Shown: piece by piece, positions 12,256 to 51,825 of the stretch | Numbering within the stretch: position 1 is the first letter of the stretch | Layout: each line of letters starts with the position of its first letter | From: Clostridium thermobutyricum | GTDB taxonomy: Bacteria; Bacillota; Clostridia; Ch29 | NCBI GenBank assembly: GCA_016842005.1 | Contig: JAENYD010000009.1 | Span: 20,315-84,314, forward strand | Direction of reading: 5' to 3' | DNA: 64,000 nt | Made by a program: the position numbers and the translations under genes | The notes under the pieces: model-generated | Database searches by the model: none | Seen by the model: the letters and a program-made list of their open reading frames with translations, nothing else | Told to the model about the DNA's origin: nothing

Positions 12256-13537
<1,282 letters not shown>

Positions 13538-14960: not shown

Positions 14961-15072
14961 TTATTGTACCCCCCAACAGAATATATATTTATTCTAACCC
15001 GATTACCTCAAATATTTGAAATATAATAAAAAAGCCGGATTTACCCGACTTAAGATTCATATCATAATCAAT

Positions 15073-15258
15073 TTAACTCATGCTATAATAATATTCTTCA
15101 TCTAATACAATGGTTTCTGCTTCTTCATCTATCCTGGTATATTCTAAAGAACCTTCTTCAACTGGGGCGTATTCACCGTTCTTTGCACGTCTTAAAAACG
15201 TTAAAAGTACTTCTTGTTCTTTTATGTCCTTACCTTTTTCTTTCCTGCCTTCTGCCAT
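15073..15258 (-). CDS. Small acidic hypothetical protein (61 aa)
   Basis: ATG with an AAAGGAGG RBS located 16 nt after the protease stop. AT-rich island. Confidence 0.45.
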   Translation of the reverse strand: MAEGRKEKGKDIKEQEVLLTFLRRAKNGEYAPVEEGSLEYTRIDEEAETIVLDEEYYYSMS

Positions 15259-15271
15259 ACAAAAACCTCCT

Positions 15272-16435
15272 TTAATCAATAATCTTTTTCCCGGTTTTAC
15301 TTTCTATATCATTTCTAATACCGCTAAGGTCTATTTCAAAACCACATCCGCAAATTAATTTATTATTTTTCGGAAAAAGTCTAACCCCTTTATCTTTCAT
15401 ATCCTTATCTATAATAGGGTCATCAATAAACTTTGCATAAAATTTATGCGTTTCCCCGCACTTTTGGCATTTAACTTCAATTTCCACAGCACCCGATTCT
15501 GTGCTGGTAGGGGGCTTTTGAGCTTTGCGCAAAGCATTAGTGGGAACAGCATCTTTAGTAATTTTAACATCATAAGTAGCAAATAATTTATAGGTACTGG
15601 TAGACATAAAAAGCAATCTCAATACTGTTTGTATCTTATATACAATATCGGCTAATTTGATTTGGTCATCAACTCTTGTAATTTTTAAGCCTATTTCTTC
15701 TAGATCATCAATTTTAATAGAACGCCCATGACTTCTCCATTTACCATGATTAGTCAGTTCATGGGCTATTTCTGCAGCTCTTTCCAATTTTTTCTTTTCT
15801 GAGACTTTTATTCCTCTGGCTTCAGTAATATTCCAATCTTTAAATTTATATCTGCTTAACCAATCAATAACTAAATCTTTAGCGAACTCCAGAGAATTAT
15901 TAACACCTTTTAGTTCCCCGGGACTTATTTGGGCAACCATTGTAGCGTCAAATGGATTTAATTTGCCTTGTTTTTCAGCCTGATCTCTCTTTTCCTTCAC
16001 CCATTCCATATAATCATAGGCCGATATGGTTGACCTTCCAACTCGTACCTGCGCATCTATAGGACCTAAACTCCCGCTTTCTGTCATCAAAATTTCGTTC
16101 CCTGATAGTACAATTATTGTTCCAGCACTTTTAGCTTCTCCTGAAACAACAAATCCTATGTAATCAAATTTACTTCTTAAAAATCTTACAATCTCTTCGG
16201 CAGCGGCTCCACTTCCTCCTGGTGTCTCAATATAAAAATCAAGTTTTTTAGTTTTGATATCTTTTAGCATATCGAATATAACATAATAATCATCCATACT
16301 TAATGGCAAATCAGGAATGGGCTTGCCCATTGCTCCAGCATAAATTATTAAATACGTATCTCTAATCTCATTATATTCTTCAATCAATCTGCGCAACTCA
16401 TTATTTAAGTCCAGAACACTCATTTTTTTACTCAT
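15272..16435 (-). CDS. ClpP/SppA-class (S49/SDH-like) serine peptidase with a C-terminal CxxC...CxC zinc ribbon
   Basis: ETPGGSGAAAEEI and GEAKSAGT motifs resemble SppA/ClpP-fold peptidases. The C-terminus reads CQKCGETH...CGCGFEID. Start taken at MSKKMSV. AT-rich. Confidence 0.55.
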   Translation of the reverse strand: MSKKMSVLDLNNELRRLIEEYNEIRDTYLIIYAGAMGKPIPDLPLSMDDYYVIFDMLKDIKTKKLDFYIETPGGSGAAAEEIVRFLRSKFDYIGFVVSGEAKSAGTIIVLSGNEILMTESGSLGPIDAQVRVGRSTISAYDYMEWVKEKRDQAEKQGKLNPFDATMVAQISPGELKGVNNSLEFAKDLVIDWLSRYKFKDWNITEARGIKVSEKKKLERAAEIAHELTNHGKWRSHGRSIKIDDLEEIGLKITRVDDQIKLADIVYKIQTVLRLLFMSTSTYKLFATYDVKITKDAVPTNALRKAQKPPTSTESGAVEIEVKCQKCGETHKFYAKFIDDPIIDKDMKDKGVRLFPKNNKLICGCGFEIDLSGIRNDIESKTGKKIID

Positions 16436-16560
16436 ATACTCTCCCAGTAAACCCACATTTATACACCTCTTTACCATTTTATTCTAAATGGTCGGGTTCT
16501 AACTGCTCCAGTTATTATTAATATTCTCGCCTTTTCTAAGTTTTCCTTCAATTTGTTACA

Positions 16561-16592
16561 AAAAAAAGGCGTGCAGCTACACGCCTTTTTCC
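16561..16592. terminator. Terminator at the 3' end of the ntp operon
   Basis: aaaaaaaGGCGTGcagctaCACGCCttttt, overlapping the ntpD stop. Confidence 0.65.
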
Positions 16593-51076: not shown

Positions 51077-51481
51077 TTATAAGAAAAATGGGTTTAACAA
51101 TTTTAACCCAAAATCAAGTAAATGTCTGAAATCGTCTTCATTTCGAGTTACTAGCGTAGCAGCATGTTCTATAGCAGTGGCAGCAATTAGTGCGTCTGGT
51201 AATTTTAGTGAACGGTTGCAATTGGATTTACTTACCCGCCGGAGTTCTCCCGCTTTAAGAGCAACCGTTGAATTTACTTCTATAATTTCTCCTAAATCCA
51301 GTATGCTTCTTAAATCATGAATATCTTCTTCTGTAAGCTTCAAAGATGAAAATAACTCTGCTTCTACAATTACCGAATATACTATGCCATTATTCTGAGC
51401 TTTCTTCATGAAATTTACTGCCGGCTCAAGCCCGTTCATTGTATAAACAATAATATTCGTATCCACACAGTACTTAGTCAA
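51077..51481 (-). CDS. vapC: PIN-domain toxin VapC
   Basis: 134 aa with the conserved D residues (CVDTNI, ...NEDDF). Confidence 0.8.
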   Translation of the reverse strand: MTKYCVDTNIIVYTMNGLEPAVNFMKKAQNNGIVYSVIVEAELFSSLKLTEEDIHDLRSILDLGEIIEVNSTVALKAGELRRVSKSNCNRSLKLPDALIAATAIEHAATLVTRNEDDFRHLLDFGLKLLNPFFL

Positions 51482-51734
51482 GCTCTGGAACCTCCCTGTC
51501 TTCTTTCCGGCGCATGCTTAAAATATCTGCAACAATGTCAGGGCGGTTTTCCCATTTACCGGCAACTTTTTCGATAATTCCTTCCGGTTTATTCTTTTTA
51601 ATAACTTTTAAAATAATTTTATTTTTATCCGGGATCACCTCAACCAAATCCCCTGGTTTAATATCCGTACCACGCAATATCTTCTTAATGGAAATACGAC
51701 CCTGGGGGTCTACCTTTTCCCTAATAGTAGGCAT
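51474..51734 (-). CDS. vapB: AbrB/SpoVT-type antitoxin (VapB-like)
   Basis: About 86 aa. Overlaps vapC by 8 nt. GAGGAGGTG RBS. Confidence 0.7.
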   Translation of the reverse strand: MPTIREKVDPQGRISIKKILRGTDIKPGDLVEVIPDKNKIILKVIKKNKPEGIIEKVAGKWENRPDIVADILSMRRKEDREVPELD

Positions 51735-51825
51735 CAAAAAGCACCTCCTCTTCTCATAGTATAACATTAAATGAGGTATTTGCCACGAAAATTGTATCTA
51801 TTCAGTACGATAATATTTTTACTAT

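Follow-up and report, generated by a model that had tools for sequence, protein, structure and literature searches.

A mobile two-gene cassette encoding an SDH-family ClpP-fold protease and a small conserved partner, a candidate phage-exclusion or addiction module

Introduction

Serine proteinases of the SDH family (PF01972, formerly DUF114; NF047768) have a Clp-type fold in which the catalytic serine, aspartate, and histidine occur in this order, according to the Pfam description of the family. Protease-based immunity in prokaryotes is a small and recently opened field, and our literature searches on the SDH family, PF01972, DUF114, and ClpP-like anti-phage proteins returned no paper on the function of this family. 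SDH or Clp proteases are not mentioned in the Tai tail-assembly paper or in two recent defence-discovery papers, and a cf-PICI preprint mentions neither SDH nor immune systems. The closest named system to the locus described here is FS_HP_SDH_sah of DefenseFinder, a system name that exists in the literature and lists an SDH-class protease in defence. It was reportedly found in a phage-inducible chromosomal island in the work of Fillol-Salom et al. in Cell in 2022, and it is said to come from EcCIEDL933. Like our cassette, FS_HP_SDH_sah combines an SDH-family protease (SDH_sah) with an uncharacterized partner (a hypothetical protein) and is found in mobile elements; the two were compared by description, which suggests a resemblance only.

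Other described proteins resemble the locus in structure, position, or organization. NfeD (1510-N) and SppA, the best solved-structure matches of the protease, are both ATP-independent and bind or cleave C-terminal peptide segments, but these enzymes have a Ser-Lys dyad and are membrane-associated, whereas our protein has serine, aspartate, and histidine and no recognizable membrane anchor, and its sequence scores against the models of these families stay under their thresholds. A slot directly after a cI-like repressor is common to the RexAB exclusion cargo, carried in the immunity region of lambdoid phages, and to SDH homologues with a small ORF; this analogy is positional only, as RexA and RexB have no sequence relationship to the cassette proteins. 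The cassette also resembles type II toxin–antitoxin (TA) systems in being a compact, coupled pair, in its patchy distribution, in its carriage as AT-rich mobile cargo, and in having RelB or HicAB neighbours. Unlike type II TA systems, however, it encodes a 394-aa candidate toxin first, followed by a partner without a known antitoxin fold. TA and abortive-infection roles can coexist.

Within the SDH family, the gene 1 protein of the cassette has the same ClpP/crotonase-like fold and the same serine, aspartate, and histidine positions as other members, and a core of ~290 residues is common to it and to an E. coli prophage protein that PGAP annotates as 'SDH family Clp fold serine proteinase'. 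The clade to which gene 1 belongs differs from other SDH proteases by an additional linker and C4 zinc ribbon (~90 residues) and by a 60-aa partner that is always present.

Results

The cassette is inserted between two ATPase operons

The window, a 64,000-nucleotide stretch of Clostridium thermobutyricum DNA, contains the cassette as ~1.54 kb (roughly 16558-15020, minus strand) in a short spacer between V-type and F-type ATPase operons. Pfam matches to ATPase_gene1 (atpZ), ATP-synt_I, ATP-synt_A, and ATP-synt_C lie on one side, and V-type subunits D and B lie on the other. In a related metagenome contig (L115), in which NtpB, NtpD, and the F-type a-subunit are 90%, 78%, and 75% identical to those of the window, ntpD is followed after ~100 nt by atpZ and the cassette is absent. 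Because the ntpD-atpZ junction exists in this contig without the cassette, the cassette was inserted between the ATPase operons.

The GC content of 14961-16560 is 0.339, compared to 0.527 in the left flank, 0.514 in the right flank, and 0.491 in the whole window, which is lower than in any other 1.6-kb stretch of the window (mean 0.491, sd 0.037) and ~4 sd under the mean. Third-position GC (GC3) is 0.259 for gene 1 and 0.246 for gene 2 versus 0.568 ± 0.067 for the 51 long ORFs of the window, and gene 1 is the extreme GC3 outlier among the window ORFs. The original prediction, based on inspection by eye, was that this 1.6-kb interval is AT-richer than its flanks and had been acquired horizontally. 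The measured composition bears out the first part, and the GC and GC3 outliers, the empty junction in L115, and the unrelated neighbourhoods of the cassette in other genomes (see below) show the second.

Both edges of the insert can be placed. The terminator hairpin and T-run of the host gene ntpD (16560..16585, minus strand), read from the sequence and matched by an equivalent hairpin at the L115 empty site, mark the upstream edge. A terminator-like hairpin and T-run 3' of gene 2 (15025..15051, minus strand), identified in a terminator scan and with an analogous hairpin after gene 2 in the closest relative (L096), mark the downstream edge, with native intergenic DNA resuming from ~15015-15000; the motif GTAATCGGG is common to the downstream junction and the L115 empty site. 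Pairwise DNA alignment showed that similarity to L096 starts upstream of gene 1, at a promoter-like block (TTGAAG ... AGAATATTAATA; 16516..16551, minus strand). We regard this block as a putative promoter of gene 1; a consensus promoter scan did not pick it up. Examination of the insert junctions by eye revealed no convincing direct or inverted repeats, neither a recombinase nor terminal repeats were seen with the cassette, and a tRNA search of the window found none, so the insert is not a tRNA-linked island.

Gene 1 encodes a predicted ClpP-fold protease with a C-terminal zinc ribbon

Gene 1 (15272..16456, minus strand) encodes a 394-aa protein of the SDH family, as judged by its ORF, Pfam match, homologues, and AlphaFold (AF2) model. 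Translation most likely starts at the GTG at 16456, as a ribosome-binding site (AAGAGGTG) is located 7-8 nt upstream and the resulting N-terminus (MGLLGEYMSKKM) agrees with the family consensus and with database protein P0001; the ATG at 16477, which had been proposed as the start, is less likely. The peptides quoted in the original prediction (ETPGGSGAAAEEI, GEAKSAGT, CQKCGETH, CGCGFEID, and EEYYYSMS) are all present.

Multiple results support the identification of gene 1 as a ClpP-fold serine peptidase, as had been predicted. First, PF01972 (SDH_protease) matches the protein above its gathering threshold (47.7 bits versus 31.3, E = 1.4e-12), in an alignment limited to residues 74-145 of the protein and positions 89-160 of the 286 in the profile; phrog_11747 matches at 1e-48. 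Second, the AF2 model is confident (pLDDT 84.5), and Foldseek matches it to NfeD 1510-N, SppA, and ClpP, with PDB entries 4kwb and 3viv among the fold matches. Third, the candidate triad residues S110 (16129-16127), D134 (16057-16055), and H243 (15730-15728; all minus strand) are invariant in 58 close homologues, and an alignment with SDH relatives of 25-36% identity shows an invariant D134 together with nearly invariant S110 and H243. The Ser-Asp-His set therefore appears to be intact, making the gene 1 protein a candidate active enzyme.

Scores for related families fell below their cut-offs. With the ClpP model (S14, PF00574), gene 1 scored 18.4 bits versus a threshold of 20.2; the predicted fold is that of ClpP, but the protein stands outside the family. 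The SppA/S49 model TIGR00706 gave 14.8 bits versus 155, the NCBIfam equivalog NF047768 (Clp_like_SDH) gave 53.9 bits versus 250, and NF045542, which describes a phage ClpP-like head-maturation protease, gave 30.4 bits (3e-07) versus 120. Beyond the protease core, a disordered linker (residues 305-320) leads to a C-terminal segment (residues 323-394; 15490-15275, minus strand) in which C330, C333, C369, and C371 are invariant in the same 58 homologues, in agreement with the C4 zinc ribbon that had been noticed in the sequence.

Gene 2 encodes a small partner with a conserved aromatic tail

Gene 2 (15073..15258, minus strand) is an ORF conserved in relatives. Its 61-aa product contains the motif LLTFLRRAKNGEYAPV and ends in the tail EEYYYSMS. 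Gene 1 ends with a TAA stop codon, which is separated from the gene 2 ATG by a 13-nt spacer (15259..15271, minus strand) with an AGGAGG ribosome-binding site 7 nt ahead of the ATG. The original prediction gave a strong ribosome-binding site and a gap of 16 nt; the latter figure holds if the stop codon itself is included in the count. Relatives have either a 4-nt overlap between the two genes or a gap of 6 to ~20 nt. From the sequence, genes 1 and 2 appear to be translationally coupled.

Family motifs of the partner include LLxFLxxTKxGxY and the C-terminal aromatic tail ([Y/F/L]3-[S/G]-x-x-COOH), and conservation extends over the whole ~60 aa, beyond the extreme C-terminal motif. The description of the gene 2 protein as highly acidic fits this sequence (net charge -7) but not the family, in which net charge varies between -13 and +10. 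When both proteins were checked by HMM search, gene 1 matched PF01972 as described above, and gene 2 matched no family in Pfam, PHROG, NCBIfam, or PADLOC. Searching with the gene 2 sequence alone yielded one relative; a profile search yielded 31, all of them unannotated. AF2 modelled gene 2 alone with low confidence, being confident for helix 6-26 only; the weak model outside this N-terminal helix would be compatible with folding on binding.

Protease and partner form a conserved pair that moves between lineages

An ORF of 53-77 aa was found directly downstream of the protease at 80 of 80 GTDB loci and at 12 of 13 viral (IMG/VR) loci, and the thirteenth viral contig stops at the protease stop codon. 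Thus, the small partner gene is real and present at every examinable locus, as expected from the original prediction. No conserved third gene was found around the cassette. In a comparison with the closest relative, the protease had a dN/dS of 0.09 and the partner one of 0.18. The protease and its partner are a conserved, obligate pair under purifying selection.

A database search with gene 1 returned 2626 homologues at E ≤ 0.001, of which the closest 120 are 60-78% identical; identity among full-length relatives extends down to ~30%. Relatives of 49-66% identity occur in Methanosarcinales, Methanothrix, Dehalococcoidia, CPR, Omnitrophota, Nitrospirota, Spirochaetota, Bacillota, and others. 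The cassette was AT-richer than its flanks at 65 of 72 loci (mean difference 7.8 points), and in different genomes it lies between unrelated housekeeping genes. The cassette is mobile and has been exchanged horizontally among bacteria, archaea, and prophages.

Mobile-element and defence genes in the neighbourhood of the cassette

Among viral contigs, the cassette has an ImmA-like protease on one side and an integrase on the other in L106, adjoins an integrase in L111, and adjoins an endolysin in L108; in L113, a full-length homologue and its partner directly follow a CI-like repressor. A phage holin gene precedes the cassette in the closest relative (L096). On a Leptospira plasmid the cassette is located beside a RelB antitoxin, and in Methanosarcina it is located beside Mrr_cat and transposases. 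Short SDH homologues, which are distant relatives, are found in the accessory-gene ('moron') slots typical of prophages. One such slot, in lambdoid prophages of E. coli, lies directly after cI, and the homologue there has its own 56-aa downstream ORF. Another short homologue adjoins HicAB.

DNA methyltransferases and type IIG restriction-modification (RM) enzymes are the commonest recurrent neighbours, but by a rough count an RM or defence gene is present within ~2.5 kb at only ~1 locus in 7. In a further type of locus, found in at least 24 contigs, AbiH (9.8e-29) lies to one side of the cassette, and RdrB-like (1.6e-27) and PycC-like (4.4e-22) genes lie to the opposite side. Against a defence reading, many copies are solitary between housekeeping genes and have no defence gene nearby.

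When both proteins were searched against PADLOC-DB v2, the sole hit of gene 1 was a non-significant one to ThsA (E = 0.016, 12 bits) and gene 2 had none; a PADLOC search of the homologue at locus L195 also gave no match. The original prediction could not assign the pair to a described system. With respect to PADLOC this stands, but the SDH protease class does occur in the named FS_HP_SDH_sah system.

Discussion

The prophage, RM, and Abi contexts in which the cassette is found lend most support to reading this locus as a toxin/antitoxin or anti-phage module. On balance, we lean toward the view that the cassette is a self-contained mobile two-gene module for phage exclusion, abortive infection, or addiction, in which the protease would be the effector and the small protein its regulator. 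We infer the defence function, these two roles, and the trigger from the observations above. In such a module, the effector would be an ATP-independent ClpP-fold SDH protease joined by a flexible linker to its C4 zinc ribbon. The small protein would be the cognate regulator, acting either as a pseudo-substrate or inhibitor with its tail in the active-site groove or as a sensor or adaptor. Upon infection, or once the partner was lost, the protease would be free to cut a host or phage protein. By analogy, sensing or docking is a candidate role for the zinc ribbon, and the aromatic tail may be the part that engages the protease. Prophages, plasmids, and defence islands would carry the module as cargo.

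A purely selfish addiction module of the TA type, with no role in phage defence, seems unlikely to us. According to this explanation, the protease would be toxic once an unstable partner was lost, and this dependence would stabilize the cassette. The compact bicistronic organization and translational coupling, the often solitary position between housekeeping genes without a recombinase, the plasmid copy beside RelB and the short homologue beside HicAB, and the largely unstructured AF2 model of the partner alone would all suit such a pair. However, the partner has no recognizable antitoxin DNA-binding domain, and the association with prophage lysogeny modules and with the AbiH/RdrB-like/PycC-like island suggests immunity.

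It is quite improbable that the two genes form a protease-substrate maturation pair, in which a precursor would be cut at its C-terminal tail to yield a peptide or an activated protein for signalling or in a RiPP-like pathway. The extreme C-terminal motif of the partner is invariant, and relatives of the SppA/NfeD type (PDB 4kwb, 3viv) bind or cleave C-terminal peptides, both of which speak for this explanation. By contrast, the neighbourhood has no conserved modification enzyme, exporter, or receptor, conservation of the entire 60-aa protein exceeds what a core peptide would explain, neither translation has an N-terminal hydrophobic segment resembling a signal peptide when inspected by eye, and the pattern of mobile AT-rich cargo suits conflict systems better.

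The genes are very improbably a decayed prophage remnant consisting of a prohead (head-maturation) protease and a leftover scaffold or decoration ORF. Weak matches to NF045542 (3e-07) and to phrog_53 and phrog_1684 (~1e-07) point in this direction, but the head-maturation score of 30 bits is far under the cut-off of 120, the insert has no portal, capsid, or terminase genes, phage homologues occupy lysogeny or accessory slots away from capsid genes, and the viral proteins that match best in fold belong to the SDH proteinases and not to the prohead proteases. Moreover, a fixed pair with purifying selection on both genes recurs in hundreds of non-phage contexts. We rejected the prohead-protease reading for these reasons. 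Finally, we also rejected, as having almost no chance of being correct, a housekeeping protease tied to the ATPase operons (in membrane-subunit quality control, for example), as its sole support is the position between atp and ntp in the window, whereas the same junction is empty in L115, recurrent ATPase neighbours were found at none of the 80 genome loci, homologues are not always beside atp or ntp operons, and the GC3 is foreign.

For the phage-exclusion, abortive-infection, or addiction module that we prefer, a more specific and distinctly more doubtful version can be formulated. The cassette might be an undescribed cross-domain mobile immunity module of bacteria, CPR, and methanogenic archaea, in which the aromatic tail of the partner would hold the protease inactive until infection released it, the zinc ribbon would serve in sensing, and a conserved target would be cleaved. 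If true, this would be protease-gated abortive infection of a new mode, unlike every system in current defence catalogues. Should the cassette be a defence or addiction system of any kind, its ClpP-fold protease, zinc ribbon, and tail-bearing mini-protein would represent a new effector-regulator logic, and a gene that recurs as cargo in prophage lysogeny modules would be accounted for. The cassette offers a good experimental entry, being abundant, compact (1.5 kb), strictly two-gene, strongly conserved, and exchanged between bacteria and archaea. Annotation pipelines currently call the pair merely 'peptidase' and 'hypothetical protein'.

An AT-rich cassette inserted between two ATPase operons

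The G+C content of the interval at 14961-16560, which carries both cassette genes on the minus strand, was 33.9%, whereas the 64-kb window as a whole had 49.1% and the sequence on either side of the interval 51-53%; of all 1.6-kb windows this was the lowest value, ~4 standard deviations below the mean. The AT-richness judged by eye in the original prediction was therefore real, and all peptides cited there were found in the interval. Contrast was stronger at third codon positions than in overall G+C, with GC3 values of 0.259 for the protease gene (gene 1) and 0.246 for the partner gene (gene 2) versus 0.568 ± 0.067 across 51 long ORFs in the window. A vapBC-like toxin-antitoxin pair (51077-51767, minus strand) lies in the stretch that ranks second-lowest in GC; in this pair, which is flanked by a response-regulator gene and rho, a PIN/VapC-like ORF of 134 aa overlaps an AbrB/SpoVT-like ORF of 97 aa.

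Pfam models placed F-type atpZ (ATPase_gene1), atpI, subunit a, and a triple-hairpin c subunit on one side of the interval and V-type subunits D and B on the other. The V-type operon is followed directly by the F-type operon, which has atpZ as well as atpI. The F-type c subunit (12722-13522, minus strand; 266 aa) contains three ATP-synt_C hairpins by Pfam, the third with Gln in place of the ion-binding Glu of hairpins one and two, and is followed by a separate single-hairpin c gene (about 12256-12520).

In L115, a metagenome contig of a related organism, the gene order ntpB-ntpD-atpZ-atpI-atpB is the same as in the window, and NtpB, NtpD, and the F-type a subunit are 90%, 78%, and 75% identical to their window counterparts. 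On this contig atpZ starts about 100 nt past the ntpD stop, with no cassette in between; in the window the gap is 1616 nt. Given this empty junction, the cassette in the window is an insertion. Its upstream edge lies at about 16560, just past the ntpD terminator, and its downstream edge past a terminator-like hairpin (15051-15025), with the native spacer (GTAATCGGG) starting again at about 15015-15000. At the DNA level, the cassette resembles its closest relative, L096 (78% protein identity), from a promoter-like block (TTGxAG ... AGAATATTAATA) ~100 nt ahead of gene 1 as far as the gene 2 stop codon. From this similarity and the hairpin after gene 2, the unit appears to carry its own putative promoter-like block and terminator-like hairpin.

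A zinc-ribbon protease of the SDH superfamily

Gene 1 (16456..15272) most likely begins at GTG 16456, encoding 394 aa, rather than at ATG 16477 of the mechanically called ORF, because the GTG is supported by a ribosome-binding site (AAGAGGTG), a family-consensus N-terminus, and a match to database entry P0001. By Pfam criteria the product belongs to the SDH superfamily: residues 74-145 scored 47.7 bits with SDH_protease (PF01972), for which the threshold is 31.3, and scores fell under threshold for the ClpP, NfeD, SppA, and prohead-protease models. The NCBIfam equivalog cut-off for SDH protease was not reached, and phrog_11747, which has no assigned function, matched at 1e-48.

With 58 homologues as input, AlphaFold gave a model of mean pLDDT 84.5 in which a ClpP-type core (residues 1-300) is joined through a disordered linker (305-320) to a small β-rich domain at the C-terminus (323-394). 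The closest solved structures were NfeD 1510-N, SppA, and ClpP, which together with the PF01972 match upholds the predicted ClpP-fold serine peptidase. Among viral models, the nearest in fold were 'serine dehydrogenase proteinases' of giant viruses rather than prohead proteases. Ser110, Asp134, and His243 were invariant among close homologues and kept in SDH relatives at 25-36% identity, and this conservation leads us to expect an active protease. Cys330, Cys333, Cys369, and Cys371, all in the C-terminal domain, were likewise invariant in the homologue alignment, as anticipated for a C4 zinc ribbon. Ordinary SDH proteins are about 290 aa and lack this extension, whereas proteins that carry it are about 380-420 aa and are related down to about 28% identity; the extension defines this clade.

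An obligate partner

Gene 2 (15258..15073) starts 13 nt past the gene 1 TAA, not 16 nt as originally counted, and the strong ribosome-binding site stood (AGGAGG, 7 nt ahead of the ATG). The pairing is obligate and both genes are under purifying selection. First, tblastn with gene 2 located a homologue immediately after the protease at 72 of 80 species-representative genome loci, and the remaining eight, on inspection, had an ORF of 56-63 aa that shares these features. Second, the partner ORF was present at 12 of 13 IMG/VR loci, the contig of the thirteenth stopping at the protease stop codon. Third, the genes are always close, with a 4-nt overlap at some loci and a gap of 6 to about 20 nt at others, and no third recurrent gene was found in the neighbourhoods of the genome loci compared. 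Finally, comparison with the closest relative gave a dN/dS of 0.09 (protease) and 0.18 (partner), which marks the two as genuine genes under constraint.

The partner family has a conserved N-terminal motif, L-L-x-F-(L/V/I)-x-x-T-K-x-G-x-(Y/F), and a conserved C-terminal end of three aromatic or hydrophobic residues, Ser or Gly, and 2-3 further residues. The window protein ends in EEYYYSMS as described, although the acidity attributed to it is not a family trait (net charge -13 to +10). Modelled alone with AF2, the partner was confident for helix 6-26 only. Its annotation is 'hypothetical protein' only, and Pfam, PHROG, NCBIfam, and PADLOC hold no model for the family.

Exchange between archaea and bacteria

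The cassette is mobile. A protein database search with the protease returned 2626 matches, the best 120 of which were all about 390 aa and shared 60-78% identity with the protein of the window. The 80 genome loci (49-65% identity) fell in Methanosarcinales, Methanothrix, Methanocellales, Thermoplasmatales, Dehalococcoidia, Nitrospirota, Omnitrophota, Desulfobacterota, Spirochaetota, Bacillota, Planctomycetota, CPR (Roizmanbacteria, Levyibacteriota, Saccharimonadales), and other groups. The cassette was AT-richer than its own flanks at 65 of 72 loci (mean difference, -7.8 points), and its neighbourhoods were mutually unrelated. Constant residence beside atp or ntp genes, which the original prediction had named as counting against it, was not seen: sites lay between TM2/VTT-domain genes and an ABC transporter, between accA and lemA, and before a NUDIX gene. 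Acquisition is thus supported by the G+C and GC3 contrast, the empty site in L115, and the unrelated neighbourhoods elsewhere. A large share of the contigs with a homologue, loci L011, L013, L026, L029, and L096-L101 among them, were only 1-4 kb, and many were 1.5-4 kb, which suggests that metagenome assemblies are prone to breaking near the cassette, a pattern expected of strain-variable or multi-context mobile DNA.

Phage and defence contexts and a proposed function

On viral contigs, full-length cassettes had an ImmA-like metalloprotease on one side and an integrase on the other (L106), adjoined an integrase (L111) or an endolysin (L108), or immediately followed a CI-like repressor (L113); the L096 cassette comes after a phage holin gene. 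A Leptospira interrogans plasmid carries the cassette beside a RelB antitoxin, and in Methanosarcina sp. WH1 it adjoins a Mrr_cat gene and several transposases. DNA methyltransferases and MmeI-type IIG restriction enzymes were the commonest neighbour families (132 immediate neighbours, 69 genome loci). One lineage, on at least 24 contigs, has AbiH (9.8e-29) on one side of the cassette and an RdrB-like deaminase (1.6e-27) and PycC-like cyclase (4.4e-22) on the other. In L195 (4657-13609), the order is AbiH, cassette, a 788-aa protein that matched no PADLOC model, RdrB-like adenosine deaminase, and PycC-like cyclase. Counting against an argument from defence context, many copies stand alone amid housekeeping genes.

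We infer that the cassette is mobile conflict cargo, either a phage-exclusion/abortive-infection module or an addiction module, roles that frequently go together, with the protease as putative effector and the mini-protein as its putative dedicated regulator. In the most economical model, the N-terminal helix of the partner would dock on the protease and its conserved aromatic C-terminal tail would fill the substrate groove, acting as an inhibitor or pseudo-substrate, in analogy to the SppA and NfeD structures among the fold matches, which have C-terminal peptides bound in the active site. Infection or partner loss would then unleash proteolysis of a host or phage target, with the zinc ribbon on its flexible linker as a candidate sensor or docking module. 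Trigger, target, and direction of regulation are proposed here; by analogy, CalpL-type and retron- or CBASS-associated proteases provide precedent for protease-gated immune signalling.

DefenseFinder's FS_HP_SDH_sah, which reportedly stems from work by Fillol-Salom et al. in 2022, is the only named defence system built on the SDH protease class, and the cassette is a possible member of it. The existence of this system is confirmed by its listing in a 2026 paper. PADLOC v2 has no model for either cassette protein, and literature searches found no functional study of the family. Protease-plus-partner cargo in prophages or defence islands is not in itself a surprising category; we rate the cassette as an SDH-protease two-gene module distinguished by its zinc ribbon and tail-bearing partner, and it is abundant, compact, exchanged between domains, and experimentally tractable.

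Short, distant SDH homologues occupy classic prophage accessory slots: between tail genes and integrase in Gordonia phage BeeGee, between late regulator C and lysis genes in a Shewanella Mu-like phage, and beside HicAB in Porphyromonas phages. In E. coli lambdoid prophages, a 300-aa SDH protease with its own 56-aa downstream ORF directly follows a cI-like repressor, in the slot that rexAB fills in lambda; the pair is a candidate exclusion module, and its host is tractable. Among complete E. coli genomes, 17 of 5426 carried the cI-adjacent homologue, which also lay in a prophage region of E. coli plasmid pSM107_MCR (L087, 4800-5873).
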